A program made the translations under genes and the position numbers. Below, in pieces: positions 23,281 to 62,215 of a DNA stretch of 64,000 nucleotides (position 1 is its first letter; each line of letters begins with the position of its first letter). A model generated the notes under the pieces. That model did no database searches. It saw nothing but the letters and a program-made list of their open reading frames with translations, and was not told the origin of the DNA. This stretch comes from an uncultured Gemmatimonadota bacterium (GTDB lineage: Bacteria; JAAXHH01). Location of the stretch: positions 2,176,001 through 2,240,000 of the forward strand of contig OX638340.1 of the NCBI GenBank assembly GCA_951812955.1, in the 5' to 3' direction.

Positions 23281-26200
23281 CTATCTGTTCCAGTCGGACA
23301 AATCGGGTACGCCCCAGCTGACGACGACCTCCAGTCCCGGTTCCGGTAACGCCCGCCGCGCGGTCTGTAGGCCCGTCGACGGCGCCGTCCAGTTCCGCAG
23401 CAAACCCCGCACCCGCCCGTCTACCGGATCCAGGAGGAGCGCCGCAGAGCGGTCATCCCCATCGTACTCGCTTTCTTCGCCGCCCAGCGTCGCGACGCCT
23501 TCGGGACCGGAAAGCACGATGCGTGAAAGCCGGCTGGACCAGTCTAGCCGGACCGGAATGACGAAGGCAAAGGAACCACCCTCGCCGTCGGCGATCTCGG
23601 CCATGCCGAAGCGCAGGCTGAACAGCGCGCCCCCTCCTTCGTCTTCGCCGACGATCCGGTACGGACCATCCAGTCGGGGCATGGATGCAGGCGCGTCAAT
23701 GGCGAAAGCCGGTTCAAGCACTATATCACCGTCGCTGTTCACACCGCCCCAGAGCAGCAGGCTGCGCGTGGACGGCGCGAAGGCCGCTGCCATCCGGGTT
23801 TCCCGTGTCTGCGACAAGCGGTAGCCCATGGCCTTGTTGAAATTGTAATCACTGATCCAAGCGGGATCGCAGTAGCCCATCAGATCCGGTGTACTCGGGT
23901 CCACTAATCTCCCCTCGAGAAGGTCATATCCCCATGCGCCTATCGAACCATCCGGATAGGGATATTCGGGATCGGGTCCACCGGCATCACCGCACGGGGC
24001 ATGAAATAAGTTCAGATTGTGGCCTAGTTCGTGGGCGATGGTAAATCCACTGAGGCCTGAGATAGTCACGTTTCCCGGCAGCTCACCCCGACCTCCGCCG
24101 TTTCTCAGCATACCCATGTAGTGTCCGGCCCCACCTTCCATGGTTGCAATTACCCCGGTAAGCCGGAAAACTTCAGATCGGTTTTCCCACACCGGATCCA
24201 CCGATATCGAGACAGGTTCATGAACATTCAGCACGAAGTCGCCCACGGGAAGGATATCGCGCGTCAATCGGAACAGGTCGGATTCAGCATTAAGTCCATC
24301 GATCTGCGCCAGGTACGATTCGTCGGGATGCTCCGTCCAGAGGAACGGAATCAGAGTGAGTTCAAAAGGCGGTAGATTCACCACGTCCACGGGCATTCGG
24401 CCCTCACGGGGAAGGCGGCCGGAGATGCCCAGAGCCGGATCCAGGCCGCCGTCCGGATCGATCTCGACGACCATCTCCAGCCCTGGCGCCAGAACGCGAC
24501 CGGGAATCCGTGCGTTGGCTGTAGCCGATAGATCTCCCTCTTCGATCTGCCGGGGAATAGTAGTGCCGCTGCCTGGTATGTCTACAGCATACACTTCGGC
24601 GCCGCGCTCGTAAAAGGTGGCCCGCACGGGAGGCAAGGCGGCATCCGGATCCGATTCCGACGTAATGAAAACGCGGAGTAGCGCATCTTCTCCCGCCATC
24701 AGGGGAACCGGATACGCGAGCGACTGCGTCGCCTGGGTAACGTAGGCCGCTGATCCTCCACCCCCTACGCCGCAGTCGGCAACCCGATTGTTCGGAATAC
24801 CCCGCAGCCAGTCCTGGAAACCGGGATCAGAAGGCGCACATAGTTGCGTTCCGCCAAGCAGGAGTTCTTCCAGGTCCAGGTTGGTCAACGTCGGAGGCAG
24901 TACGCCGGACATGTCTGCATTATCCGTAAGACCCAGCGACTTGAGTCCGACAAGACCACCGAAGGTTCGCGGGATATTGCCTCTAATCCTGTTGTACGAA
25001 AGACGCAGCTGTTCAAGGTTGCCGAGTTGGCCCAATTCCGGAGGGATCAGACCCGTCAACTGGTTGTTGGCAAGCCACAGTCTCTCGAGGTTGCCGAGTT
25101 GGCTTATTTCCAAGGGGATCGGCCCCGACAACTGATTGTTGGAAAGCTGCAGAATCACGAGGTTGCCGAGTTGGCCTATTTCCGAGGGGACCGGACCCGT
25201 CAACTGATTGTTGGTTAGATGCAGAATCTCGAGGTTGCCGAGTTGGCCTATTTCCAAGGGGATCGGACCCGACAATTGATTTTTGGAAAGCTGCAGTGTC
25301 TTGAGGTTGCCAAGTTGGCCTATTTCCGTGGGGATCGGACCCGACAACTGATTGAAGTCAAGCCCCAGCCATTCGAGGTTGCCGAGTTGGCCTATTTCCG
25401 TAGGGATCGGACCGCTTATTGAGGTGCCTTGAATTCCCAGCTTTTCGAGGGCGCCGAGTTGGACCAATTCCGGAGGGATCGACCCCGTCAACCGGGTGAA
25501 GTTAAGGTTCAGGTTTTCAAGGTTATGTAGTTGTCCGAGTTCCGGAGGAATCGACCCTGTCAACTGATTCCCGCCAAGAGACAATTCTGTGAGGTTTTGT
25601 AGTTGTCCAAGTTCCGGAGGAATCGACCCTGTCAACTGATTCCCGCCAAGAAACAATGTTGCGAGGTTATGAAGCTGTCCAAGTTTCGGGGGAATCGAAC
25701 CTGTTAACCGATTCTCGCCAAGGTATAATACTGTGAGATTGTAGAGCTGTCCAAGTTCCGGGGGAATCGAACCTGTTAACTGATTCCCACCAAGAGACAA
25801 TCTATTGAGTTTAATTAGTTGTCCGATATCAGGCGGTAACACTCCCAGAAGATTGTTCGCAGCTAAGCTCAGCCCTGTTGCCTCTCCACTTGAGTTGGTT
25901 GCCACGCCATGCCATTCGTCTAGTCGCGAATCGCTCAGCCAATTTGTACTGTTGGTCCAGTTTGGACCATTCGTACTGTTATATAGGGCAGCTAAGGGAT
26001 AGTAGTCCCGCCGCATTTCGGTGCAGTTCATTACTTTTTGTTGAGGTATGCCATCCAGCCATTCCTGAAACTGGGTATCCACCGGTGCGCACAGTTGTGT
26101 TCCCTCAAGTTCCAATTCAAGTAATCCGATACTCGTGAATGAATGTGGTACTGGTCCGATAAGCCCGGAATTGGATGAGAGATTCAGCACTTCAAGATTT

Positions 26201-28443
26201 GCCAGATCGCTCAACTGGCTTGGAAGCGATCCAGTCATATTGTTGTTGGCAAGCTCCAGCGCTCTCACCCTACCGCCGGCCCCCACAGACACGCCGTACC
26301 ACTCGTACAGCGGCGCATCGCTCAGCCAGTTTTCATCGTTCGACCATGATGCCCCGTCTGTTGCCCTGTAAAGCGCGATCAGGGTGCCCGAATCGCAGAA
26401 GACGGCGCCTCTCTTCGTTGAGATTCCGCTGAGCCACTTCTGGAATGCCGGGGTGCTGGGTATACACAGATCCGTAGATTCCATCTCAAGTGACTCAGGT
26501 TTTGTCTGAATAAGCGCCGGCGGCAACGGTCCGGTGAGTTCACGGTTATGGCTGAGACTCAGAATCCGCAGGCTTTTAAGGTTGCCCAATGCTGGCGGAA
26601 TTTGACCCGATAACCGATTCCGGCTGAGATGCAACCGTCGAAGGTTAGCCAGATTGCCCAGCTCAGGCGGAATCGAGCCGGACAGCTCGTTGTTATCAAG
26701 ATACAGACCTTGCAGGTTTTCAAGGCTCCCCAATGCTGGCGGGATCGGACCGGACAACTCGTTGCTCCCAAGATTCAGCTCTTGCAGGTTTTTCAGGTTG
26801 CCCAATACTGGCGGAATCGAGCCGGACAGCTCGTTGCCCCCAAGTTCCAGATATTGCAGGTTTTCAAGATTGCCCAGTTCAGGAGGAATCGGTCCCGACA
26901 ATTCGTTGCCCGCAAGATACAGATACTGCAGATTTTCAAAGCTGCCCAGTTCGGGCGGGATCGGACCGGACAATTCATTGTTCCAAAGACTCAGGTATTG
27001 TAGGTTTTCAAAGCTGCCCAGTTCGGGCGGGATCGGACCGGATATACGATTTCGGTAAAGATCCAGCTTATGTAGGCTGTCCAGGTTGCTCAACTCGACC
27101 GGGATTGAGCCGGACAACCCGTTCTCTTTGAGAACCAGGCTTGTGACGCGGCCCACGACGTTTGTCGTGACTCCGTACCACGCTTCGAGCGGCCCGTCGC
27201 TCAGCCAGTTGTCGTTGTTGCCCCAATTGGGGCCGTCGGTGGCGTTGTAAAACGCGGTCAGCCCCGCTCGATCAGTGCGGTCATCTGTGACCATTATCTC
27301 CACATTGGCAGACGCGCTGCCGGCACGCGCCGTGACCGTTGCGCTGCCGTTGCCGACCGCCGTCACCAGACCCTGAGAACTCACCGTCGCCACCGACGCG
27401 TCGCTGCTCTGCCAGTCCACGACCGCACCAGCTACCGGCTGGCCGTTCTGATCGAGCACCGATGCCGTCAACTGCACAGTCTCCCCCAGGGACATCAGCG
27501 TCGCCGCCGCCGGCTCGATTACCACGCTGCCCGCAGACTGCATGACCGTCACCGGGACGCTCCCGGACGCGCTGCCGGCACGCGCCGTGACCGTTGCGCT
27601 GCCGTTGCCGACCGCCGTCACCAGACCCTGGGAACTCACCGTCGCCACCGACGCGTCGCTGCTCTGCCAGTCCACGACCGCACCAGCTACCGGCTGGCCG
27701 TTCTGATCGAGCACCGATGCCGTCAACTGCACAGTCTCCCCCAGGGACATCAGCGTCGCCGCCGCCGGCTCGATTACCACGCTGCCCGCAGACTGCATGA
27801 CCGTCACCGGGACGCTCCCGGACGCGCTGCCGGCACGCGCCGTGACCGTTGCGCTGCCGTTGCCGACCGCCGTCACCAGACCCTGGGAACTCACCGTCGC
27901 CACCGACGCGTCGCTGCTCTGCCAGTCCACAACCGCACCAGCTACCGGCTGGCCGTTCTGATCGAGCACCGATGCCGTCAACTGCACAGTCTCCCCCAGG
28001 GACATCAGCGTCGCCGCCGCCGGCTCGATTACCACGCTGCCCGCAGACTGCATGACCGTCACCGGGACGCTCCCGGACGCGCTGCCGGCACGCGCCGTGA
28101 CCGTTGCGCTGCCGTTGCCGACCGCCGTCACCAGACCCTGGGAACTCACCGTCGCCACCGACGCGTCGCTGCTCTGCCAGTCCACAACCGCACCAGCTAC
28201 CGGCTGGCCGTTCTGATCGAGCACCGATGCCGTCAACTGAGCCGTCGATCCTAAGGAGTTGAGCGTAACCGACGAAGGGGTGATCGTAACTCGGGTGGGT
28301 ATGGGCGTTACGGAGACTGGAGGAGGCTGTTCAGGCGGTTTCGGCTTTGTCGGGCTGTCCTTGCCACAGGTAACCATCGCAAGAAGGGTCAGACATGCTA
28401 CTGGGATCAGAATAAGACGTGAGACGGCTGGAGGCGGAGTCAT
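23281..28443 (-). CDS. Giant secreted lipoprotein: signal/lipobox, 4x Big_2 Ig-like repeats, 3 blocks of plant-specific-type LRRs each with an LRRNT_2-like cap, C-terminal metzincin-like zinc metalloprotease domain
   Basis: 1720 aa. N-terminus MTPPP...LLAMVTCGKD has a lipobox-like Cys. The 85-aa Big_2-like unit is repeated from near-identical 255-bp DNA units. Many 24-residue LxxLxxLxLxxNxLSGxIPxELGxLxN repeats follow N-caps of the form ALYxATDGxxWxNxxNWLSDxPLxEWxGV. The zinc site reads TIAHELGHNLNLFHAP, i.e. HExxHxxNxxH. Confidence 0.8.
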   Translation of the reverse strand: MTPPPAVSRLILIPVACLTLLAMVTCGKDSPTKPKPPEQPPPVSVTPIPTRVTITPSSVTLNSLGSTAQLTASVLDQNGQPVAGAVVDWQSSDASVATVSSQGLVTAVGNGSATVTARAGSASGSVPVTVMQSAGSVVIEPAAATLMSLGETVQLTASVLDQNGQPVAGAVVDWQSSDASVATVSSQGLVTAVGNGSATVTARAGSASGSVPVTVMQSAGSVVIEPAAATLMSLGETVQLTASVLDQNGQPVAGAVVDWQSSDASVATVSSQGLVTAVGNGSATVTARAGSASGSVPVTVMQSAGSVVIEPAAATLMSLGETVQLTASVLDQNGQPVAGAVVDWQSSDASVATVSSQGLVTAVGNGSATVTARAGSASANVEIMVTDDRTDRAGLTAFYNATDGPNWGNNDNWLSDGPLEAWYGVTTNVVGRVTSLVLKENGLSGSIPVELSNLDSLHKLDLYRNRISGPIPPELGSFENLQYLSLWNNELSGPIPPELGSFENLQYLYLAGNELSGPIPPELGNLENLQYLELGGNELSGSIPPVLGNLKNLQELNLGSNELSGPIPPALGSLENLQGLYLDNNELSGSIPPELGNLANLRRLHLSRNRLSGQIPPALGNLKSLRILSLSHNRELTGPLPPALIQTKPESLEMESTDLCIPSTPAFQKWLSGISTKRGAVFCDSGTLIALYRATDGASWSNDENWLSDAPLYEWYGVSVGAGGRVRALELANNNMTGSLPSQLSDLANLEVLNLSSNSGLIGPVPHSFTSIGLLELELEGTQLCAPVDTQFQEWLDGIPQQKVMNCTEMRRDYYPLAALYNSTNGPNWTNSTNWLSDSRLDEWHGVATNSSGEATGLSLAANNLLGVLPPDIGQLIKLNRLSLGGNQLTGSIPPELGQLYNLTVLYLGENRLTGSIPPKLGQLHNLATLFLGGNQLTGSIPPELGQLQNLTELSLGGNQLTGSIPPELGQLHNLENLNLNFTRLTGSIPPELVQLGALEKLGIQGTSISGPIPTEIGQLGNLEWLGLDFNQLSGPIPTEIGQLGNLKTLQLSKNQLSGPIPLEIGQLGNLEILHLTNNQLTGPVPSEIGQLGNLVILQLSNNQLSGPIPLEISQLGNLERLWLANNQLTGLIPPELGQLGNLEQLRLSYNRIRGNIPRTFGGLVGLKSLGLTDNADMSGVLPPTLTNLDLEELLLGGTQLCAPSDPGFQDWLRGIPNNRVADCGVGGGGSAAYVTQATQSLAYPVPLMAGEDALLRVFITSESDPDAALPPVRATFYERGAEVYAVDIPGSGTTIPRQIEEGDLSATANARIPGRVLAPGLEMVVEIDPDGGLDPALGISGRLPREGRMPVDVVNLPPFELTLIPFLWTEHPDESYLAQIDGLNAESDLFRLTRDILPVGDFVLNVHEPVSISVDPVWENRSEVFRLTGVIATMEGGAGHYMGMLRNGGGRGELPGNVTISGLSGFTIAHELGHNLNLFHAPCGDAGGPDPEYPYPDGSIGAWGYDLLEGRLVDPSTPDLMGYCDPAWISDYNFNKAMGYRLSQTRETRMAAAFAPSTRSLLLWGGVNSDGDIVLEPAFAIDAPASMPRLDGPYRIVGEDEGGGALFSLRFGMAEIADGEGGSFAFVIPVRLDWSSRLSRIVLSGPEGVATLGGEESEYDGDDRSAALLLDPVDGRVRGLLRNWTAPSTGLQTARRALPEPGLEVVVSWGVPDLSDWNR
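27311..28238. repeat. Near-identical 255-bp tandem repeat array (about 3.6 copies) encoding Big_2-like Ig domains
   Basis: Copies begin at 27311, 27566, 27821 and 28076. The plus-strand antisense ORFs 27339-27545, 27594-27800 and 27849-28055 are identical. Confidence 0.9.
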
Positions 28444-28861
28444 GATCCGAAACGGCTGGGACTTGGAGCGTTGTCCCTTGGGAAGGACCAGAAGGATTCT
28501 CAGGTTAAGGAACCTCTAGTCAAGTTCCTGGCATATACTGCGTAAATAACGGAACCCTTCATTAATTCTGCACGGCTAAGAGGAAGCATATCGAATGCCT
28601 GTCAGGCAAGAAGCATAATCCGTCTAGAAGTAGCGGTCACACTATTTAAGTCCGACCCGACCACGACCGCACAAAAACATCGACAATATACTACACAAAA
28701 TAAAAGGTTAATAACCTAAGGAACCTCTGATCAAGCCCCTGACGTTGTTTTCGTGGATAAAGTAGATCATGCTAATATAATACAGGATAAAGAGTGATTT
28801 GTGCGTGAATAAAACGCCATATAAGAAGAATATTACGCGAATATCAGTCTTGGAATATCTT

Positions 28862-30093
28862 AAAGGAACCTTCGATCAAGTTCTTGGCGTTGTTTTCGTG
28901 GATAAGGTAATATGAACTCGGTATCCGTCGTACGTTGTGCAGCGCCTTCTCAACTTTAAGATCAAACGGGGTACGCGTTCATGAAACAATCGAGTTTTTT
29001 CGATATGGCCTACGATCAGAAGAAGAAAACGCGCAAGGAACGCTTTCTGGGTGAGATGGATGCGGTGCTTCCCTGGGACCTGTTGCTCGCGCCCATCCTG
29101 GCGCACTATCCGAAGGCGGGAGGCGGCAGGCGCCCCATAGGGGCTCCGGTGATGCTCAGGATCTACTTCATGCAGCAGTGGTACGGCCTTGGCGATCCGG
29201 CCATGGAAGACAGTCTCTACGACGTGGAATCGATGCGCCGCTTCGCAGGCGTGGATCTTGGCGGCGTGCCCGACGAGACGACGATCTGCAAGTTCCGCCA
29301 CCTCTTGGAAGCCCATGGACTGACCGAAGCGTTGTTCGAGCAGACAAAGCGCTATCTGTCGGATCGGGGCATGATGGTGAGCGAAGGCACGATCGTGGAT
29401 TCAGGCGATCATCCATGAGCCGTCGTCGACGAAGAACAAGGAGGGTAAGGGGGACCCCGAGATGGCCTTACGCGAAGAAGGGCAACACCTGGCACTTCGG
29501 CATGAAGGCCCACGTGGGCAGCGATCCGAAGGGACGGGTGCACAGCGTGGTGGCCACGCCCGCCTCGGTCCACGACGCCAAGGCGATGGAGGCCTGCCTG
29601 CATGGACAAGAAAAAGCGATCTACGGCGACAAGGCCTATGCGGACCAGGTGAGAAAGCAAAGGGCAGAAGAGGAAGGGATCGTATGGCGGGTGCATCGCA
29701 AGGCCAACAGGGGCAGGCGCCTCAACTGTGCGGACCGGTCGTTCAACCGAAAGAGCAATCGCGTACGAGCAAGGGTCGAACATCCCGTTGGCATCATCAA
29801 AAACCTGTGGGGCTATCGAAAGGTCAGGTACCGGGGTCTTGCCAAGAACACGGCCCATCTCTTCACCCTGTTCGCCCTGGCCAACTTCCAGTCCGAAGGG
29901 AACTGGCGCTCACATGGGAAGCAGTCCGTCCAGACCTGGCGAAACCGAGCACAATGGCCGATACGGGACCCATCTGAGGCCAAAAACACCCTCGCAAGTA
30001 CCCCAAACGACACCATTTTCAACATGATCGTCCTCTAAACTGACTCATATCATACCTCTTGGCCGGACAACCGGGTTGATCAGAGGTTCCTTA
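28862..30093 (+). mobile_element. IS5-family insertion sequence (about 1.23 kb) with terminal inverted repeats AAGGAACCTCTGATCAA / TTGATCAGAGGTTCCTT
   Basis: Left IR at about 28863 (aaggaaccttcgatcaag). Right IR at 30077-30093 is its exact complement with one mismatch. The transposase ORFs lie between them. Confidence 0.7.
28981..30038 (+). pseudogene. IS5-family DDE transposase, disrupted by two frameshifts (split over three frames)
   Basis: The N-terminal part (frame 1 to about 29395) ends EGTIVD. The IS5 hallmark IIHEPSSTKNKEGKGDPEM is in frame 2. KKGNTWHFGMKAHVGSD and the rest of the DDE domain are in frame 3 to 30038. Both shifts are +1, so they do not compensate. Confidence 0.7.
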
Positions 30094-30676
30094 AATGACT
30101 ACATTTCGACATGCTACTGTCTCAAAGTCATGATATGACATCCTGCAACTCACAATACATGTATCATGGTAGTAATGCGAATGCCATTTCTACGATATGT
30201 TCGTCTCATACATCACCAACTTCACCTCCCCCCACCCCAAACCGGCTTGTACCTTGGGGATGGAATTAGGACCTGGTGAAAGCTGTTCGATCGGCAGTGC
30301 AACGTTTGAAGTCAGGGATGACGGGTTCGGTTGTGTCGTAGGCATATGTGTGCAGGTACCGGTCTTACATTGAACAACTTCAGAGCTAGCAAAATAGCCG
30401 GCACCTCCTGTTGGAGAATTGACGGACTACCCTAGCGTTTGAGTCGGATTTGCAATATTAGCCCGGATGCCTATGGTGGTTTTGTGCAGCCAGTGAGTTA
30501 CGAGAATAGATGTACTTCCAGTAAACGTGGAAATGGACTCACTTTAGTCGCATCGGGTCAAAGGAAAGCTACTGATCCGGACTTACGCAGACCGGGTCAC
30601 TTTTTAGCGGCTACCCATAGAACTTAAGAATACAAAAAGACCGACGCCCGGTTGGGTTACAACTGCGTCGCTTCTA

Positions 30677-31837
30677 TCATCCCACCCACACCGGGTGATC
30701 CGCGCCCAGGTGTTCGTATCCGTCCGTCAGCATACGCGCGCCGGTACCGTCGGCATTTGCCAGCCAGAGTCCGCTCGGTGACCCCACCCCGGCGCGGCAG
30801 AAGGCAAACATGGAACCGTCCGGCGACCAGGCGGAGCGGAAGTTCCACACTCGAGATTCATAGGGTATGAACTCCGTTTCCTCGCCCGTAAAGGGATCGA
30901 GCAGGCAGATGGCGGTGCCGCCGCGGGCTTCTTCGGGATAGTATTCCCGGTTGAAGTGGTCGATGTCCGGCCGTTGCGCCTGGTACGGCCAGGCCGTGCG
31001 GGAACCGGGCTCCGCGCGGGTGTACGTAACCCGTTTCCCGTCCGGGGTCCACTGGGCGATGTTTGAACCGCCGCCCCGGGATTCAGGGTTTCCATAGGAC
31101 GTGGCGAACCACTGGCGCTGGCCCGTCGTGACCTTCCGGTGGGTCGCGCCGTCCGGACTGCCGAGGCACAGATCGGCCCAGTCGTGTCCCGGATCATCGG
31201 GATAGTGGCAGTCCTGGTAGATCAGCCATTGCCCGTCCGGCGACCACATGGGACCGAAGTACAGGTGGCCCGGCGCCGCCGTGACTTCCACCCGGTTTCC
31301 TCCGTCCAGGTCGGACACGAAAATGCAGTAGCTGTCCCGGTCGGCCAGCATGGTCGCATGGTACGCGAACTTGCGGCCGTCCGGGCTGATCTGGACGCAG
31401 TAGACGAACCCTTCCTCGGCACCTGTGATCTCCCGCGGATCGGATCCGTCCAGGTCCATGGTCCAGATGCGCTGTTTCCCGTCGATGATGGGGTTCATCA
31501 CGAGACGTTCCTCTCCGGGCAGGATATGGGTGCACCCCATGAACGGCGCGGGCCGGTTCTTGAGGGCGATCTCCTCCAGCAGGCGGTCTTCTTCCAGGTC
31601 GTATATCCAGAGATGGACTCGCACATTGCCTTCCCAGGCTTTGCCCGGTTCGTAGCCGGACACGATCACCCTGCGGCGATCGTCGAACAGCGGTCCCCAA
31701 CCCCAGCTGGACATACCTGGAACATCCGGACGGGGATACCAGACCCTCGCACCGGCCGGGCTCGCGGGGTCATCCAGATCGGCCACGCCCAGCCGCCCGT
31801 GGGAGTTGAAAAGCAGTCGTTGACACGTGTTTTGCAT
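30677..31837 (-). CDS. TolB-like / PD40 WD40-like beta-propeller repeat protein
   Basis: Repeated xSPDG motifs (ISPDGRKFAY, WSPDGQWLIY, GSPDGATH, WTPDGKRVTY, WSPDGSMFAF). Probable start MQNTCQ at 31837. The longer ORF N-terminus is Arg-rich read-through. Confidence 0.65.
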   Translation of the reverse strand: MQNTCQRLLFNSHGRLGVADLDDPASPAGARVWYPRPDVPGMSSWGWGPLFDDRRRVIVSGYEPGKAWEGNVRVHLWIYDLEEDRLLEEIALKNRPAPFMGCTHILPGEERLVMNPIIDGKQRIWTMDLDGSDPREITGAEEGFVYCVQISPDGRKFAYHATMLADRDSYCIFVSDLDGGNRVEVTAAPGHLYFGPMWSPDGQWLIYQDCHYPDDPGHDWADLCLGSPDGATHRKVTTGQRQWFATSYGNPESRGGGSNIAQWTPDGKRVTYTRAEPGSRTAWPYQAQRPDIDHFNREYYPEEARGGTAICLLDPFTGEETEFIPYESRVWNFRSAWSPDGSMFAFCRAGVGSPSGLWLANADGTGARMLTDGYEHLGADHPVWVG

Positions 31838-31884
31838 GATGATTCCCGTTACGCTGGCCGCCGGGGTCTCCGCTACGCCCGCGC

Positions 31885-33042
31885 CTAGGGCGTCCGCCAC
31901 GCGATCCCGGCGTGGAAGCCCACATCGGGGGTGTTCTGATACTGGCTGAGATTCTCGGTCAGGGCCAGATCGAGTGACAGTGACTCCGACAGGGCGTACC
32001 GCACACCGGCTGTCGCCTCGATGGCCGTGCGGTTCAAGGGTCCGAGCCTGCTGCCGGGGAAGGGGCCGATGTTGGTCTGCGTCTGGACCAGCGCGGCCAG
32101 CCGGCCCGTGGTCCGGTATTCGAAGGCCAGCACGAGGGAAGTGATGGACCGCAAAGGGAATCCCTCGCCATGGGAAGGCCTGCCCAGCCGGCTGTGGGCC
32201 AGGTTGGCGTGAAAGACCAGGTGCTGCTCCGGCCGCCAGGTCGCGAACAGCGCCGCCTGGAAATCCGTTCCCCCGCTGCCGGTCAGCGTCTCCAGGTTGC
32301 CCGTGGACAGCTTCACGGCGCCGGCAAGGGCAAGGGTGACGTTCCTCCCGCCCAGGTACAGCGGCGTCTTCACCCGAAGCACAAGGTCCCCGGGCCGAAA
32401 GGCGGCGGACTCCACGCTTCTGATCCAGAAACGGCGGTTTCGGACGACGAATACGCCATAGTCGTTCCTGGGGGCCCACTCCCTGCCCCCGTTGGACAGG
32501 TTGAACATGCCGTGGAACCCCTCCACCACGCCATCCAGAAAGCCGCCGCCGTGCTTGAGGAAGGGCAGGGTCATGCCTGCCTGCAGGCGCGATGCGATTC
32601 GCCAGTCCAGGTCCACCGAGACGCGCAGGGTTTCCGAATCGACGAACAGCCGGTATTCGTTTGCAGGTGCGGCCCGGTAGTAGTCATCGGCGATCAGGGT
32701 ATCGCCCACGGGAAGGGTGCTCGCGTAGGTATTGGCGTAGTCGAACCGAACGGCCCAACGGGCCGACCGCCTCGGCAGCAGGTCTCCCGCATCGGGACGG
32801 AGTCCGAGGAACAACATTCTTACCGGGAACTGGTCCCGCTGCATGAAGGGACCGGTGGCAGGGGACTGGGAGAATACGGGAAAGGCGATGGTTAACAGGC
32901 TGCAAGCAACCGCCCGGCGCAACACGCGAGCCGCGCCCGGTAGGCGAGCCGCCCTTGGAAAACGAGCCGCACCCGGAAAGCGAGTCGCAGCACCCGGAAA
33001 GCGCTTTTCAACCTGGAAACGGTGCGATGTATATTCCGTCAT
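31885..33042 (-). CDS. Hypothetical secreted, possibly outer-membrane beta-barrel protein (DUF3187-like?), with a repeat-containing N-terminus
   Basis: Signal-peptide-like RRAVACSLLTIAFPVFSQ. An alternative GTG start at 32925 would skip the RFPGAA-repeat N-terminus. Alternating amphipathic beta-strand pattern. Family assignment is tentative. Confidence 0.45.
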   Translation of the reverse strand: MTEYTSHRFQVEKRFPGAATRFPGAARFPRAARLPGAARVLRRAVACSLLTIAFPVFSQSPATGPFMQRDQFPVRMLFLGLRPDAGDLLPRRSARWAVRFDYANTYASTLPVGDTLIADDYYRAAPANEYRLFVDSETLRVSVDLDWRIASRLQAGMTLPFLKHGGGFLDGVVEGFHGMFNLSNGGREWAPRNDYGVFVVRNRRFWIRSVESAAFRPGDLVLRVKTPLYLGGRNVTLALAGAVKLSTGNLETLTGSGGTDFQAALFATWRPEQHLVFHANLAHSRLGRPSHGEGFPLRSITSLVLAFEYRTTGRLAALVQTQTNIGPFPGSRLGPLNRTAIEATAGVRYALSESLSLDLALTENLSQYQNTPDVGFHAGIAWRTP

Positions 33043-33075
33043 TCCATGCTCCAGCCCAGGTCCCGCACCGGGATC

Positions 33076-34887
33076 TCAACCCAGGTAGGCCAGCGTCTGG
33101 CCCGCGATCACCTGGACGCCCGGGTTTATGGAGACATGGGTCACGGTACCTGCGACGTCGGCGGTGACCTGCATTTCCATTTTCATGGCTTCCAGGACCA
33201 CGATGACGTCCCCTTCCTCTACGGTCTGCCCGGGAGCGACCGCCACCTTGAGCACTTTGCCGGGGATCGGCGCGATAACCGGCGTGGTCCCGGCTCGTTC
33301 CGCCGCCTCAGACGCGGCCTCGGACGTATCGGGCTGCAGGTCGACATCATAGGCCTTGCCGTTCACGATCGCCGTTTTGCCCTCGATGCGCAGCGCGTAA
33401 CTTCTGCCGTTGACGGTCACCTGGTATCCACGGGGACCGTCCGTTCCAGGCAGCGCGTCTTCCGGCGGTTCCTCCTGGTCCTTCGCGGCCTTCTTGCGGA
33501 CGCCGATGAACCCCTCACCCTTCAGAAAGGCCACCCCCCGGTCGCCGCACGCCGCGACGATGAAGATGTTCTCGTCCGTATCCTCGATCCCGGCTTCCTT
33601 CAGCACGCTTCGAGCCGCTTCGATGCCCTTCTTCGGATCGTTGTCGTTCAGTTCCAGCACAGGCCGACGGTTGGGCGGCAGCCCAAGCTGCTCCGAGGCG
33701 ATGTTCACGACCACCGGGTCCGGGGGCACGGGCGTCTTGCCGAAATAACCCAGCACCATGCGTCCGTAGTCTTCGGCGATCTTCTTCCAGGGGCCCATCA
33801 TCACGTTGTTGAAAGCCTGCTGGAAGTAGAACTGGGAAACCGGGGTGACCGACGTGCCGTACCCGCCCTTCTCTACGACCTCGCTCATGGCCTTGATGAT
33901 GGCGGGATAACGGTCCATGATGCCATTGTCCCGGAGCATCTGCGTATTGGCGGTCAGGGCGCCGCCCGGCATGGGGCTCCAGGGGAGCAGGGGTTCGACG
34001 GCCACGGCCTCGGGGGGAAGGAAATAGTCTTCCATGCACTCCTTCAGGACCTCCGACGCTTCCCGCACACCGTCGGGGTCGATGTCCAGGTCGTAGTTCG
34101 TGCCGCGCAGCGCGTGCCACATGACGAGGATGTCGGGCTGCGAGGTGCCGCCCGAAACCGGTGCGAAGGCGAGGTCGATGGCATCGGCGCCGGCTTCGAG
34201 CGCCGCCTGGTACGCGGCGACGGCGATGCCCGACGTGTCGTGGGTATGATAATGGATCCAGGTACCCTCGGGCAGCAGCTTCCGGGCGGCCTTCACGGAT
34301 TCGTAGGCCTTGGAAGGCACGGCCGTGCCCGAAGCGTCCTTGAAACACACCGAGTCGAAGGGAATGCCGGCGTCGAGGATCTTCCTGAAGGTCTCCGTGT
34401 AGAACGCCGCGTCGTGAGCGCCCGAACATCCCGGCGGAAGTTCCATGACGGTGACGCACACCTGGTGCTTGAGGCCGGCCTCCGTGATGCACCGTCCGCT
34501 GTGCACGAGGTTCTCCACGTCGTTCAGGGCGTCGAAGTTCCGGATGGTCGTCATGCCGTGTTTTTTGAACAGTTCAGCGTGCAGACGGATGATGTCGCGG
34601 GGCTGCGAATCCAGTCCGACCACGTTAACACCCCGGGACAGGGTCTGCAGGTTGGCGTCCGGACCCACGGCCTCCCGGATGGCGTCCATCCGTTCGAATG
34701 CGTCTTCGTTGCAATAGAAATAGGGCGACTGGAACAAGGCGCCGCCGCCGGCTTCGAAGTAATCGATCCCCGCGTTACGCGCCGCTTCCACGGCGGGCAT
34801 GAAGTCCCGGGTAAATACGCGCGCGCCGTAAACGGACTGGAATCCGTCCCGGAACGTGGTGCACATGAAATTGACTTTCTTTTTCAC
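33076..34887 (-). CDS. oadA: Oxaloacetate decarboxylase alpha subunit (carboxyltransferase + biotinyl carrier domains)
   Basis: 603 aa. PYC_OADA/HMGL-like N-terminal domain (TTFRDGFQS; HxH). C-terminal biotin attachment motif EAMKM. Confidence 0.75.
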   Translation of the reverse strand: MKKKVNFMCTTFRDGFQSVYGARVFTRDFMPAVEAARNAGIDYFEAGGGALFQSPYFYCNEDAFERMDAIREAVGPDANLQTLSRGVNVVGLDSQPRDIIRLHAELFKKHGMTTIRNFDALNDVENLVHSGRCITEAGLKHQVCVTVMELPPGCSGAHDAAFYTETFRKILDAGIPFDSVCFKDASGTAVPSKAYESVKAARKLLPEGTWIHYHTHDTSGIAVAAYQAALEAGADAIDLAFAPVSGGTSQPDILVMWHALRGTNYDLDIDPDGVREASEVLKECMEDYFLPPEAVAVEPLLPWSPMPGGALTANTQMLRDNGIMDRYPAIIKAMSEVVEKGGYGTSVTPVSQFYFQQAFNNVMMGPWKKIAEDYGRMVLGYFGKTPVPPDPVVVNIASEQLGLPPNRRPVLELNDNDPKKGIEAARSVLKEAGIEDTDENIFIVAACGDRGVAFLKGEGFIGVRKKAAKDQEEPPEDALPGTDGPRGYQVTVNGRSYALRIEGKTAIVNGKAYDVDLQPDTSEAASEAAERAGTTPVIAPIPGKVLKVAVAPGQTVEEGDVIVVLEAMKMEMQVTADVAGTVTHVSINPGVQVIAGQTLAYLG

Positions 34888-59236: not shown

Positions 59237-60376
59237 CTAAGCCGCCATTTCCTTGCCCTGAGCTTCCCTTATGCACTCCGCGAGAATGGGTATGCCATCG
59301 CGGATATCCTCAATCGTGGGGAAACCGTACGCGATGCGCAGGTAGGGAATATCCTCTCCCAGGGCGCTGAATCCCTGCCCCGGCGTGTAGTAGACGTCGC
59401 GGCTTGCCGCCAGTTGGTGGGCCTTGCGCGTGTCCGTCGCCGATGGGATCCGTACCCACACGAACATGCCGCCGGGCGGATCCGTCCACCAGACCTCATC
59501 GCCCAACGCGCCGAAGTGGGCCTCCAGCGATTCGACGACCGCGTCCTTGCGCGCTTTCATGACGCGGTTCACTTCTGCGATGTGGTCCCATAGATGCTCG
59601 CCGAAGTATTCCGCTACGATCATGCTCGCCAGGGCGTTCGTCCCTCCGTCCATCTTGTTGGCCATGATCCGCTGCTGCAACGCCTCCGGGGCCATGAAAT
59701 AACCCTGCCTCACGCCTGGTCCGAGTATCTTGGAGAAAGAACCGACGTAAACGACCCGTTCGTCTTCGTCCAGATGATACAGGTTCGGCGGCACCGGATC
59801 GGACTGGAACACGATGTCCCCGTAGCAGTGGTCGTCCACGACCGGCGTATCAAACTCGCGAGCCAATTCGAGCAGGCGTTCCCGCCGTTCCAGCGGCATG
59901 ATAGAGCCCGTTGGATTGTGATGGGTGGGGATGGTGTAGATGAACTTCGGCGGCGTTCCCGCGTCGACAAGACCCTGCAATACGGTCTCCAGTTCGTCCG
60001 TGACCAGTCCCTGTTCGTCGAGCGGCGCAGGCACGATGCGCACCTGCCTGCTGCGAAACACACTCAACGAGCCGCCGTAAGAAAAGGATTCCGTGACGAT
60101 CGTGTCTCCGGGTGACGCGAAGGCGTCCGTGATCAACTGCAGCGCCTGCATCGAACCAGAGGTTAAAACGATCTCTTCCAGGGGCACCGCTCGTCCAGTG
60201 CCGCGCGCGAATCGCTGCGAAGCGATGGCTCTCAACGGTTCGTATCCCCGGCCGTCCGGGTAGTTTACCAGTTCCGAGCCGCGTGCGGCAATGACCTTTG
60301 CCGCGGCCTCGGCCAGCGCATCTGACGGGAAGGACAGGGGGTCGGGCCGTCCGGCGCCTAGATTGATCTCACGCAT
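59237..60376 (-). CDS. PLP-dependent aminotransferase, class I/II fold (2-aminoadipate/aromatic aminotransferase-like)
   Basis: 379 aa. PLP-lysine context YVGSFSKILGPGVRQGY. GC-rich like the backbone. Confidence 0.7.
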   Translation of the reverse strand: MREINLGAGRPDPLSFPSDALAEAAAKVIAARGSELVNYPDGRGYEPLRAIASQRFARGTGRAVPLEEIVLTSGSMQALQLITDAFASPGDTIVTESFSYGGSLSVFRSRQVRIVPAPLDEQGLVTDELETVLQGLVDAGTPPKFIYTIPTHHNPTGSIMPLERRERLLELAREFDTPVVDDHCYGDIVFQSDPVPPNLYHLDEDERVVYVGSFSKILGPGVRQGYFMAPEALQQRIMANKMDGGTNALASMIVAEYFGEHLWDHIAEVNRVMKARKDAVVESLEAHFGALGDEVWWTDPPGGMFVWVRIPSATDTRKAHQLAASRDVYYTPGQGFSALGEDIPYLRIAYGFPTIEDIRDGIPILAECIREAQGKEMAA

Positions 60377-60507
60377 CGATTTGCTCCTGCAGAACTTGGA
60401 TGTATTAGTATCGGTTTTTTGCTGCTAAATACAATCAGGATATCTCACCAACTAGATGGTGTTACAGTCTCAGTGTTTAATGGTAATGGAGAACTGCACT
60501 GTCTTTG

Positions 60508-61152
60508 TCACCTACGTGATCGCGATGGTACTGAACAATGATCATCCAATATTTTAACAAGAGACATACAAACACTTCTCATCTGACTAATCGCACTACT
60601 TATCTCTGATCGAGTATATCTGCGTCCGATATTCTCCGGTGGTTCTCGACCATGGGCAATAGCATTTCTGTGTGCGACCACTTCGTCTATTCGATTTCTA
60701 TGTTTTCGTCGGCGTACAGGCATCCGCCGAATACCAAAAACCCCAAAAATAAATCGCAGATGCGAGTATCTATAATGTGTTCCGTCGGTAGGTGGTTTGA
60801 TATTACTGGACAGATCAGGCTTTTGATCTGAAAATGCACGTTCAAATACTTTAACTCGATTTAACCATTCCTTACTTCGCGACCCGTCCCGCAATGATTT
60901 CAATTCTGGATCCAAGTAAATAGCCATTAGTGTAGGCAACAGATCTTTCATCATGTGTTTGTGGTTTTTAATCGCTTCTACTGCCCCAATCACTGCGTTA
61001 TTCACAGTGTATTCGTAGACAGCGTAAGTCTGCACAAACAAAAGCCCCTTGGCAACGACTGCTTGGTGTTCTTCCAGCTTCCTTGTCGCCTTCCAAAATT
61101 GCTCAATTGATAAAAACCGAGTTTCAATTTCTGTCTTAAGTGCTGGGAACAT
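60508..61152 (-). CDS. HEPN-like protein (R-x4-H motif: HRNAIAHG) - putative RNase partner of the DUF262 protein
   Basis: 214 aa. C-terminal EVVAHRNAIAHGREPP matches the HEPN Rx4-6H (RNxxxHG) signature. 17-nt overlap with the upstream DUF262 gene. AT-rich. Confidence 0.55.
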   Translation of the reverse strand: MFPALKTEIETRFLSIEQFWKATRKLEEHQAVVAKGLLFVQTYAVYEYTVNNAVIGAVEAIKNHKHMMKDLLPTLMAIYLDPELKSLRDGSRSKEWLNRVKVFERAFSDQKPDLSSNIKPPTDGTHYRYSHLRFIFGVFGIRRMPVRRRKHRNRIDEVVAHRNAIAHGREPPENIGRRYTRSEISSAISQMRSVCMSLVKILDDHCSVPSRSRR

Positions 61153-62215
61153 ACACTCTTCCTAAGAATCGATCTCGGCAGAACTCTATACGACCCTTCA
61201 CAGCTCTCAAACTATTTGTCGCGCCTGTGGTGAATCCTCTGAGTTCGTCCGAGTTCATCCAAGTAGAAATGTCTGTTGTGTCCAGTTTAGCATGTTCTTT
61301 TAATGCTAGTGATGCTCCTACGGCTATTGCCTCATAGAGATTCAATGGCGTTAAGCCCTTCCGACCAGGACGCCTTATACCTTCTGGGAAAGTTTGGGCT
61401 AGTTTTTGAAAAACCGTTCGAAACTCTTTTTCTTTGGTAATGTAGTCAAAGTGATTGCTCGCATCCTTCATGTAATCCGTTAAAAACTCCTCAACACTGT
61501 GTTCAAAGTTATTGTATCGATCCAAATACGCAAAATAACGAAGCACACATTCTTCTAAAGTTCCATCATTCCTGTTTCCTTTTGAAAGTTTTACGACCTT
61601 TTGGAAGTCATCAGTTTTTGCCAACTCATCTAGTTTGTCAGCAAACTTTCCTTGGTACACGCAGTCCCGTATTTCTTGGTTCGTTAGCAAAACACCGCCG
61701 GTGTTCAAGCGCTCAAAAAGATCAAACCGTATTACTTTGTCACTCTTATCGTTCAGGGTAACAACTCTTAAAGGTCTAGTCTTCACATGTTGTTGAATTG
61801 TTGTAGGAAAGGTACCATATGTCAAATTGTTGAAATTACTTAGTTTCTTCAGCCCTTTTAATACTAGCTTCTCACCCAAGCCAAATTGATTACGCAGTTC
61901 TTCATCGCCAGCAAACTTGACTATTGCACTCAAACGTTGAACTCCATCAACAGCTTCCCACGTGAAATCGTCATTTGTTGCCATAAAAAGATTGGGAATC
62001 GGTATTCCAAGCATGAGCGATTCTACGAGTCGAGAACAGCGTTCATCATTCCAGCGAAATTGCCGTTGGTATGAAGGTGCAACTGATATCTGTCCTTCCT
62101 TTAGCATGCTCAATAGTTCTTGGAGTTGGATGTCGAAAGTATCGAAATCCACTGTTCGTCGTTGAGTTGCCAGTTGATCAGTAAGGTCTTGCGGTATTTC
62201 GATAGGAATTTGCAC
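61136..62215 (-). CDS. DUF262 (ParB/Sulfiredoxin-like, GmrS-like) domain protein
   Basis: 359 aa. N-terminal motifs QRQFRW and AVDGVQRLSAI (the DGQQR motif of DUF262). No DUF1524/His-Me nuclease domain follows. AT-rich island. Confidence 0.7.
   Translation of the reverse strand: MQIPIEIPQDLTDQLATQRRTVDFDTFDIQLQELLSMLKEGQISVAPSYQRQFRWNDERCSRLVESLMLGIPIPNLFMATNDDFTWEAVDGVQRLSAIVKFAGDEELRNQFGLGEKLVLKGLKKLSNFNNLTYGTFPTTIQQHVKTRPLRVVTLNDKSDKVIRFDLFERLNTGGVLLTNQEIRDCVYQGKFADKLDELAKTDDFQKVVKLSKGNRNDGTLEECVLRYFAYLDRYNNFEHSVEEFLTDYMKDASNHFDYITKEKEFRTVFQKLAQTFPEGIRRPGRKGLTPLNLYEAIAVGASLALKEHAKLDTTDISTWMNSDELRGFTTGATNSLRAVKGRIEFCRDRFLGRVYVPST

Follow-up and report, generated by a model that had tools for sequence, protein, structure and literature searches.

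A probable three-ended, non-autonomous IS5-group unit and older left-end stumps upstream of a giant lipoprotein gene in an uncultured Gemmatimonadota bacterium

IS5 from Escherichia coli is the type element of the IS5 family, and the target usually quoted for it is CTAG/YTAR. Some other groups of this family use programmed -1 frameshifting. Insertions of IS5 are able to activate neighbouring operons in E. coli, such as bgl, fucAO, glpFK and flhDC. Besides complete elements, general reviews of insertion sequences catalogue non-autonomous derivatives, which include MITEs and defective copies mobilised in trans, as well as solo terminal repeats. For Tn1721, a transposon with an additional end, the accepted origin involves two copies flanking a segment, followed by the partial deletion of one of the copies (PMC5736529).

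The window analysed here is a stretch of 64,000 nt from contig OX638340.1 of an uncultured Gemmatimonadota bacterium. It holds a giant lipoprotein gene (Big_2/LRR/M66), whose start at 28443 is confirmed: it is the first ATG in an ORF of 1720 aa, and the N-terminus resembles that of a lipoprotein. A first, sequence-only reading had placed a decayed insertion sequence upstream of this start, and the position is confirmed: the GGAACC of the left-end copy nearest to the gene (copy 1) starts 66 nt upstream of this codon. The region is best explained, with good probability, as a dead, non-autonomous IS5-group element of 1,371 bp, accompanied by one or two older left-end stumps in a TTAA-rich intergenic hot spot. 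Decayed elements of this type are commonplace in genomes, and only one structural feature of this one is somewhat out of the ordinary.

Judged by its profile matches, the core of the element (28865-30090) is an IS5-family element of the IS5 group. The frame-corrected translation matches NCBIfam transpos_IS5_4 (3.6e-94, 315 bits against a cut-off of 140), Pfam DDE_Tnp_1 (PF01609, 3.2e-25) and DUF772 (PF05598, 2.7e-18), which bears out the degenerate IS5-family element seen in the first reading and provides the DDE_Tnp_1 transposase with an N-terminal DUF772 region by which the IS5 group is recognised. Over 28863-30097 the DNA is 90-92% identical (about 91%) to intact copies, the closest of which sit in uncultured Gemmatimonadota-type MAGs. 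The intact copies are 1,230-1,234 bp long, with one 313-aa ORF, 16-nt repeats and 4-bp duplications. As in the IS5 group, the ORF is single and uninterrupted in the intact relatives (loci L002-L007, L027, L028 and L087-L093); the window copy lacks a single ORF because it is a pseudogene. Its lengths, 1,226 bp for the core and 1,371 bp for the unit, fall within the approximately 1-1.5 kb of the group. The transposase sequence is divided as follows.

28981-29418, plus strand: N-terminal fragment of the transposase pseudogene, 145 aa, with the DUF772 DNA-binding region; the first +1 frameshift, at about 29403, ends its frame
29416-30038, plus strand: DDE part of the transposase pseudogene, a 207-aa ORF opening in the frame set by the first +1 insertion

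The spread of the coding sequence over three frames, already claimed from the sequence alone, is evident both from the ORFs and from the alignment to intact relatives, which places single-base insertions at about 29403 and about 29468. The alignment also reveals a 3-nt in-frame deletion at about 29017 and a 4-nt deletion after 29889, and the stop codon has been lost (TAG to TGG, 29915-29917). The 207-aa ORF follows the transposase frame only downstream of the second insertion, and its tail is out of frame after the 4-nt deletion. The motifs IVD..., YGDKAY and RVEHP, with the D, D and E residues, are readable in the corrected translation; the frame is broken, and conserved residues nearby are changed (IIHAPSS to IIHEPSS, EHPF to EHPV). 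The ratio of synonymous to non-synonymous substitutions is 5:9 and 6:5 between composite copies, which is about neutral, compared with 14:2 and 24:7 between intact copies. The transposase of the window is thus a pseudogene.

The two deletions and the lost stop codon are absent from the list of the first reading. Exact proteins are on record for both parts, that of the N-terminal fragment (P0127) in two other assemblies and that of the 207-aa ORF (P0145) on a contig of 3,813,436 nt. The possibility that the N-terminal fragment is a domesticated DUF772 DNA-binding protein was rejected, given the about neutral substitutions and the loss of conserved residues in type B copies (W to G, G to E). Another protein, P0138 (L094, L095), was considered as a further composite copy and turned out to come from another frameshifted copy, which has the usual single left end.

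A pair of +1 shifts so close together could conceivably stem from indel-prone reads, and the first reading had flagged about 29395 and about 29450 as possible sequencing errors. The shifts are real, since six other assemblies, made in several projects with several assemblers, contain the same two insertions (L083-L086, L096 and L097), which excludes such errors; the three-end structure recurs there as well, and the indels lie outside homopolymers, amid substitutions. Programmed frameshifting, which the first reading had already set aside, would call for two overlapping ORFs in active copies and a slippery site. Intact relatives have instead one uninterrupted ORF, and the window shows lineage-specific single-base insertions together with further indels, where the +1 insertions are followed by the -4 deletion and the loss of the stop codon, and conserved residues are altered too. 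That the transposase is really intact or expressed by recoding, with the repeated ends as an assembly error, is then extremely improbable and effectively already refuted.

The ends of the element were located with the 17-nt motif AAGGAACCTCTGATCAA, which, allowing up to 3 mismatches, has four matches in the 64 kb. By chance 0.06 matches are expected from shuffles, and 0 of 100 shuffles reach four.

28507, plus strand: end-motif match with 2 mismatches
28718, plus strand: end-motif match with 0 mismatches
28863, plus strand: end-motif match with 2 mismatches
30076-30092, minus strand: end-motif match with 0 mismatches

These matches agree with the earlier description of a left-end-like sequence occurring three times in direct orientation (at about 28505, 28718 and 28863) and of a single complementary right end at 30077-30093, which is the sole right end in the window. 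In a repeat search the three left copies align over 47 nt, where copy 3 is 85% and copy 1 is 68% identical to copy 2; the approximately 50 bp that copies 2 and 3 were said to have in common correspond to this alignment. The repeats begin with GGAACC at 28509, 28720 and 28865, and the right repeat ends at 30090. As in the IS5 group, the terminal inverted repeats are short, with 16 nt each (GGAACCTCTGATCAAG and GGAACCTCTGATCAAC).

28720-28764, plus strand: outer left end (copy 2), a 16-nt repeat plus 29 nt of subterminal sequence, with 39 of 45 positions as in intact copies
28865-28880, plus strand: inner left repeat (copy 3), GGAACCTTCGATCAAG, with 14 of 16 positions matching; homology to intact copies begins here
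30075-30090, minus strand: right terminal inverted repeat, GGAACCTCTGATCAAC as read on the minus strand

Going by the point where homology to intact copies begins, the 1,226-bp core originally had its left end at copy 3. The best inverted-repeat pairing is that of copy 2 with the right end, at 95% over 21 nt. The two mismatches of the inner repeat are the same in every composite copy, whereas the outer repeat perfectly matches the right repeat and the left repeat of intact copies (16/16), so that the extra ends are genuine IS ends, as had been supposed. The right repeat of the window is identical to that of the closest intact copies (L087-L093), and copies 2 and 3 have derived bases in common at positions 25, 34 and 37.

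Around these ends lie older remnants and two spacers.

28509-28534, plus strand: copy 1, a solo left-end remnant with strong homology over 26 nt, 23 of 26 as in intact copies
28551-28566, plus strand: copy 1b, a probable, degenerate left-repeat stump that abuts copy 1, 13 of 16 in L083 and 11 of 16 in the window
28535-28715, no strand: spacer 1, AT-rich, locus-specific and outside the mobile unit, its left edge taken up by the tail of copy 1 and by copy 1b
28765-28864, no strand: spacer 2, 100 nt, AT-rich, carried inside the unit

The homology of copy 1 continues more weakly to about 28550. This stump persists at the same place in several strains, namely in all four assemblies of the locus (the window, L083, L096 and L097). 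Its repeat reads GGAACCGCTGATCAAG in L083, and a GA-to-AG swap is therefore specific to the window, L096 and L097. Copy 1b is a probable fourth, very degenerate left-repeat stump, as suggested by its similarity to the repeat: at least 13/16 matching positions on one strand would arise by chance in about 400 nt with a probability of about 1.5e-3. Copy 1, and probably copy 1b, are older solo ends bound to this locus. Spacer 1 is 100% identical to L096 and L097, and 94% (28535-28600) and 61% (28601-28719) identical to L083; beyond this locus it resembles none of the fetched loci, nor does it resemble the IS, spacer 2 or the right flank. Spacer 2 is found only in composite units (L083-L086, L096 and L097, 99% identical) and is probably a captured flank. 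A 30-nt tandem duplication lies at its left edge in L085, L096 and L097, and a promoter-like site on the plus strand (TGGATA, 16 nt, TATAAT, 28754-28781) points into the IS. A short-word BLAST of both spacers against the window and all 97 loci matched only the same locus or composite units. The spacers were also considered as diverged IS sequence, as copies of each other or as copies of the right flank, and Smith-Waterman scores were no better than those of shuffles. No known RNA family was found in the region beyond a sub-threshold chance match, nor were extra solo ends found within 3 kb of 37 related copies, where the few 3-mismatch matches (L005, L012 and others) look like chance.

The relationship between copies 2 and 3 bears on the extent of the mobile element.

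28720-30090, plus strand: IS5-family unit of 1,371 bp, bounded by the outer left end and the right end, most likely non-autonomous

According to the first reading, three independent insertions took place and the two older ones were cut down to solo left ends, so that copy 2 would be locus-bound and the element would comprise 28865-30090 only. Such a history finds support in the genuine IS origin of all four ends, in the location within a hot spot rich in TTAA targets, in the behaviour of copies 1 and 1b as solo remnants and in the start of homology to intact copies at 28863-28865. Nevertheless, copy 2 and spacer 2 are joined to the IS at a second locus, in L085, where the 1,371-bp unit has a different right flank (TATA tacattcg...) and different neighbouring genes. 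There it carries the 30-nt duplication seen in L096 and L097 and shares about 99% identity with the version in those two; the L085 contig begins at the outer repeat, and the left junction of the second locus falls outside it. The first base of that contig is also the first base of L084, whose contig spans exactly from the outer repeat to the right repeat. L083 stops 2 nt past the right repeat, and both L084 and L086 present the unit as stand-alone contigs. Independent short-read contigs thus break exactly at copy 2 and at the right end, and not at copy 3, an argument that hinges on assembler behaviour. In addition, between the window and L083 identity rises sharply at 28720, from 61% in the DNA just outside to 99-100% in the left part of the unit, and every copy shares the mutations of the inner repeat, next to a perfect outer one. 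Repeated insertion followed by deletion to solo ends fits copy 1, and probably copy 1b, as locus-bound remnants, and does not fit copies 2 and 3, which travel with the IS body and are also present together in L085. As a whole, the model of three independent insertions is unlikely, if still deserving some weight. L083 itself was considered as an independent insertion elsewhere and discarded: its DNA before the junction is homologous, in diverged form, to window positions 28592-28716, where the score is 87 and shuffles average 22, whereas the right flank shows no such homology.

These comparisons join copy 2, spacer 2 (100 nt), copy 3 and the IS body into a single unit, which has apparently been copied whole. 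This 1,371-bp unit is most likely non-autonomous, mobilised in trans and built like Tn1721/Tn1722; an outer left end of 45 nt and a spacer of 100 nt precede a complete core that has its own left repeat. A possible source of transposase in trans is offered by the intact relatives L091 and L093, which come from the same sample series (LUOR22-1) as L084 and L086. The preferred history would start with two sister copies in the same orientation, 100 nt apart, of which the upstream one would have been reduced to its first 45 nt. The inner repeat and the transposase gene would then have decayed, and the whole unit would have been moved at least once by transposase from an intact copy, acting on the outer left and right repeats. 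The anatomy, the family, the pseudogene state, the recurrence at a second locus and the persistence of the stumps here in several strains are direct observations, and the steps of this history are inferred. Several points speak against this explanation: no contig covers the left junction of the unit at the second locus, and no independent site with a target duplication around the outer left and right ends was seen; the flanks at the window locus, CTAA and TTAA, are an imperfect duplication; between the outer and inner 45-nt ends there are 7-8 differences, more than sister copies of recent origin should show; and all remnants keep the left end in the same orientation, which random decay leaves unexplained.

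The MITE-like array suggested by the first reading is absent. A MITE would be a non-coding element below about 600 bp, with both repeats, a target duplication and many copies, whereas the window has one right end and copies 1, 1b and 2 are without a partner right end, so no short paired-end element is present. A scan of metagenome contigs with GTTGTTTTCGTGGATAARGTA for a MITE or a multi-copy solo end gave only two unrelated chance matches, and neither spacer 2 nor the inner repeat was found in scans of viral contigs.

The target sites account for the repeated use of this region.

28505-28508, no strand: TTAA beside copy 1, the oldest stump, the preferred 4-bp target of the IS group, as read from the sequence
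28716-28719, no strand: CTAA, left flank of the unit, whose right flank is TTAA; L083 has TTAA at the same junction
30091-30094, no strand: TTAA, right-hand target-site duplication, as read from the sequence

A perfect 4-bp duplication, mostly TTAA, is found in 33 distinct insertions of the group, in line with the IS5 group as a whole, and these insertions yield the consensus A-N-TTAA-N-T. The bases around the CTAA junction fit this consensus, and CTAA probably represents the TTAA target duplication after a mutation. In the window, the flanks are CTAA/TTAA for the unit (3/4 bases) and TAAA/TTAA for the core. The native intergenic DNA has 7.0 TTAA per kb, compared with 0.81 per kb in the window (about 9-fold), and the same spot has been hit repeatedly because the IS group targets A-N-TTAA-N-T.

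The proximity of copy 1 to the giant gene raises the question of a regulatory role.

28496-28523, minus strand: candidate sigma-70-like hybrid promoter, with -35 TTGACT in the copy 1 repeat, a 16-nt spacer and -10 GAGAAT in the flank, directed toward the giant gene

A promoter at this site is put forward here as a hypothesis drawn from its sequence. The site matches 9/12 positions, and its -10 ends 53 nt upstream of the ATG. The stacked left ends might have been kept as promoter or regulatory sequence for the giant gene, either through this hybrid promoter or through binding sites for the truncated DUF772 fragment, which could coexist with the non-autonomous unit. The candidate lies on the strand of the gene, with a -35 improved by the GA-to-AG change, the left end faces the gene in all remnants, and the arrangement is kept in four assemblies whose neighbouring genes are 5-10% different. 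On the other hand, the promoter scan reports 3 sites in total against 1.8 expected, which is not above chance, and the phylum may have a different consensus. The site is also weaker in L083, where the alignment reads TTGATC/GAGATT and the scan does not report it, and the DUF772 fragment, with W to G and G to E changes in type B copies, is under relaxed constraint. Regulatory use of the stumps is accordingly judged improbable. A joint reading, in which a spare outer end, acquired after the inner one had mutated, lets the dead element survive as a parasite while the stumps have been co-opted as a promoter of the giant gene, its -35 sharpened by the lineage-specific change, is likewise rather implausible. 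If true, it would exemplify end-replacement rescue combined with the exaptation of IS ends as a promoter, in a lineage of uncultured Gemmatimonadota that is probably associated with sponges.

For annotation, the boundaries of the mobile unit are most likely 28720-30090, and not 28865-30090, the frameshifts are real and inherited, and 28509-28566 is most likely IS debris, and not a regulatory repeat. The frameshifted copy has spread or been homogenised between loci. The TTAA-rich hot spot lies directly upstream of a very large surface-protein gene, and strain-to-strain differences in expression could therefore trace to this region. The current understanding of transposition is unchanged by these results; the unit illustrates cleanly, within the IS5 family, a natural arrangement of three ends as in Tn1721, in which a surrogate outer end most likely replaces a mutated inner one.

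Compared with known systems, the element resembles the IS5 group in its DDE transposase, with N-terminal DUF772 and DDE_Tnp_1, its length of about 1.2 kb, the single ORF of intact copies, terminal repeats that open with GG and measure about 16 bp, and A/T-rich target duplications of 4 bp. The nearest named relative found is a Ralstonia IS1021-type transposase. The protein is, however, only 54-57% identical to the nearest annotated relatives, which are plasmid-borne, and the element is therefore an unnamed IS. The copy in the window departs from typical IS5 in being dead and in its additional, outer left end, and the target of the group is centred on TTAA instead of the sites quoted for IS5. 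Like non-autonomous IS derivatives, it would need transposase from intact copies and seems to have kept functional outer ends, and its solo stumps are decay products at an insertion hot spot. It differs from a MITE in its 1.37 kb and its full-length pseudogene, in stumps that lack a partner end and in that no multi-copy short element was found. The closest architectural parallel is Tn1721/Tn1722 of the Tn3 family, where a complete basic element is likewise accompanied by an extra repeat in the same orientation on a truncated second copy, with carried DNA in between. The larger Tn1721 unit can move by its outermost ends, and the window unit may do the same, as the second locus and the contig breaks at the outer ends suggest. 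Nevertheless, the transposase family and the mechanism are different, the duplicated end is the left one, upstream of the transposase gene, whereas Tn1721 duplicates the right end, no more than 100 nt of DNA, free of genes, has been captured, and the basic element is dead, with its inner repeat mutated.

The object at this locus belongs to an ordinary class, a decayed IS5-family element accompanied by solo ends at a hot spot for insertion, and its one modestly unusual feature is a three-ended unit that appears to have been copied in one piece. The sequence-only reading had described three direct left ends and one complementary right end, and a motif scan recovered them all: the 17-nt motif AAGGAACCTCTGATCAA (≤3 mismatches) has four matches in the 64-kb window, where 0.06 would be expected by chance in shuffled sequence.

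Features of the insertion locus
28507, + strand: match to AAGGAACCTCTGATCAA, copy 1 (left-end remnant)
28718, + strand: match to AAGGAACCTCTGATCAA, copy 2 (outer left end)
28863, + strand: match to AAGGAACCTCTGATCAA, copy 3 (inner left repeat)
30076-30092, - strand: match to AAGGAACCTCTGATCAA, right end
28754-28783: 30-nt sequence GGATAAAGTAGATCATGCTAATATAATACA, single in the window; duplicated in contig L085 (35-64) and at equivalent positions in L096 and L097
28523-28518, minus strand: candidate -35 TTGACT, within the copy 1 repeat
28501-28496, minus strand: candidate -10 GAGAAT, after a 16-nt spacer, ending 53 nt upstream of the giant-gene ATG

In a repeat search the three + strand copies align over 47 nt, copy 3 being 85% and copy 1 68% identical to copy 2. 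The best inverted pair is formed by the right end and copy 2 (21 nt, 95% identical), and copy 3, which adjoins the transposase gene, pairs with the right end more poorly than copy 2 does.

The assignment to a degenerate IS5-family element holds, as the frame-corrected translation matches NCBIfam transpos_IS5_4 (3.6e-94) and the Pfam domains DDE_Tnp_1 and DUF772. A homologue scan covering a single genome per species found 79 loci, the best of which are five intact copies in the MAG chromosome OY762445.1 and one in Gemmatimonadetes bin APA_bin_41. These six share 95% protein and 90-91% DNA identity with the window copy, and the DNA homology to intact copies spans 28863-28865 to 30091-30097, with none beyond. 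Intact copies measure 1,230-1,234 bp and hold a single 313-aa ORF, terminal repeats GGAAYCTCTGATCAAG, and perfect 4-bp target duplications, chiefly TTAA but also TATA, TTGA, and CTAA. Among annotated relatives, the nearest in the plasmid collection are Ralstonia IS1021-type transposases (54-57% identity), and the element is therefore classified by similarity as an unnamed IS5-group member.

Three contigs from other assemblies (L083, L096, and L097) represent the same locus as the window, and each has copies 1 to 3, spacers 1 and 2, and the IS. L085 comes from another locus, with a right flank reading TATA-tacattcg... versus TTAA-atgactac... at the window locus, and with different genes after the element (hypothetical protein, DAP epimerase, and so on). 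Its element and the L096/L097 version are ~99% identical and share the 30-nt tandem duplication at the junction of copy 2 and spacer 2 that marks these type B units and is not present in the window, L083, or L084. The end of the L085 contig coincides with the outermost base of copy 2, L083 terminates 2 nt past the right repeat, and L084 is a stand-alone contig of 1,376 nt running exactly from that outermost base to 2 nt past the right repeat; such breaks are what assemblers yield where a repeated unit begins and ends. Identity between the window and L083 is 61% over 28601-28719 and jumps to 100% exactly at 28720. The outer repeat agrees at 16/16 positions with the left repeat found in the closest intact copies; two mismatches mark the inner one, and they are identical in all composite copies. 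Both 45-nt ends have in common three derived bases (positions 25, 34, and 37) absent from intact relatives, and thus belong to the same sub-lineage. Within the window and the retrieved loci, spacer 2 has no match beyond composite units. The flanks, aC-CTAA and TTAA-At, correspond to the target consensus A-N-TTAA-N-T with one substitution, and the left junction in L083 is TTAA. From these comparisons, it is concluded that the putative mobile unit is 28720-30090 (1,371 bp), with copies 2 and 3 both within. The proposal of repeated insertion followed by deletion to solo ends fits copy 1, which lies outside the unit, but not copies 2 and 3, which are parts of one unit also found in L085.

Judging from its sequence, the transposase gene is dead. 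Compared with intact copies, it holds 1-nt insertions at ~29403 and ~29468, deletions of 3 nt at ~29017 and 4 nt after 29889, and TGG in place of the stop codon; two conserved motifs are also altered (IIHAPSS to IIHEPSS and EHPF to EHPV). The previously described split of the gene is explained by the two insertions that break the frame, to which the further indels and the lost stop codon are added. Sequencing errors, for which that reading had advised a re-check at ~29395 and ~29450, are ruled out because the identical two +1 insertions occur in six further contigs from six different assemblies (L083-L086, L096, and L097). The 145-aa N-terminal ORF has an exact match on record (P0127), as does the 207-aa downstream ORF (P0145, from a 3.81-Mb contig). 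Synonymous to non-synonymous substitutions are 14:2 and 24:7 among intact copies and 5:9 and 6:5 among dead ones; the latter, approximately neutral, agree with a dead gene. Many further copies of the IS group in public assemblies hold their own, different frameshifts (P0012, P0064, P0132, and P0138; L094 and L095), and one (L021) has lost its stop codon, gaining a C-terminal extension of 32 aa. Across these uncultured lineages, the group seems to be in widespread decay.

Copy 1 (28509-28534; 23/26 matches, with weak homology to about position 42) is found in all four assemblies of the window locus. Its repeat reads GGAACCGCTGATCAAG in L083, and therefore the GA-to-AG swap of the window is common only to the window, L096, and L097. 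Abutting it, a fourth repeat-like stretch at 28551 (13/16 in L083, 11/16 in the window) is probably a stump older still. Native intergenic DNA here contains 7.0 TTAA per kb versus 0.81 window-wide, so that repeated insertions at this spot are expected. The target consensus of the group, derived from 33 insertions with perfect duplications (loci L001-L093) and with TTAA at most sites, is extended and palindromic, TTAA being preceded by A at -2 and followed by T in the second position past the duplication. Another AT-rich island, at 60001-62000 (12 TTAA in a 2-kb bin versus an average of ~1.6), is a potential IS target or foreign segment. All remnants keep the left terminus in the same orientation, which might reflect adjacent deletions that started at a downstream copy's left end, nested insertion with subsequent recombination, or selection against deletions reaching the giant gene.

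The IS region is AT-rich (G+C of 36-45% versus 61% for the window) and intergenic, lying between the giant-gene start and the 3' end of a PD40/Tricorn-like beta-propeller gene. The former is a 1720-aa minus-strand ORF (23281-28443, ATG at 28443) with a lipoprotein-like N-terminus, four Big_2 domains, long LRR arrays, and a Peptidase_M66 region. Within it, 27311-28239 consists of near-identical tandem 255-bp modules coding for Big_2 domains, of which three or four registers are matched at 98-100% by the 5' ends of L083 and L096; the numerous + strand ORFs there are shadows of this repeat. The beta-propeller gene was called as a 600-aa minus-strand ORF (30677-32479) that is too long at its 5' end, with ATG 31837 as the likely start of a 386-aa protein (orthologues are called at 395 aa). 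That the element could supply or disrupt giant-gene promoter activity is plausible. A consensus scan gave one candidate site on the strand of the giant gene, with its -35 inside the copy 1 repeat. The whole scan is not above chance (3 sites versus 1.8 expected), and the site is weaker in L083, as read from the alignment, and not reported by the L083 promoter scan. A strong sigma-70-like + strand site at 28754-28781 (TGGATA, 16 nt, TATAAT; 10/12), formed from the outer left end and spacer 2, points into the IS and could drive read-through transcription of the pseudogene.

Divergence between strains is mosaic over 27932-34011. Between the window and L096/L097, the stretch from the giant-gene 5' end up to 28719 is 100% identical and 30091-30676 is 99.5% identical, but identity falls to just 92.6-95% in the PD40 gene and to 90-92.5% in the genes past it, suggesting that the giant-gene/IS segment was recently exchanged by recombination. 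Spacer 1b (28601-28719) is an unusually fast-diverging stretch immediately upstream of the unit, just 61% identical, with indels, to L083 720-836, its neighbours being 98.9% (giant-gene 5' end) and 99-100% (IS unit) identical. The window body of the element is ~3% divergent from L096/L097, the flanks at this same locus being 99.5-100% identical, and it combines the -3 deletion of the L083/L084 type with the -4 deletion of the L085/L086 type, a mosaic pattern that suggests gene conversion between copies within the same genome.

Both +1 frameshifts are present in every known copy of the unit, which occurs at two loci; this implies that it would have moved by means of a transposase supplied in trans. 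Intact relatives are found in the same sample series as two composite contigs. The unit likely began as two sister IS copies in direct orientation, 100 nt apart, the upstream one of which would then have been cut to its first 45 nt. Once the outer repeat was able to act as left end, the inner one would have been free to decay. The same architecture distinguishes Tn1721 from Tn1722: beside a complete basic element, and separated from it by captured DNA, lies one more end on what is left of a second copy. For Tn1721, the accepted scenario is that a segment lay between two copies, one of which was then partly deleted (PMC5736529).
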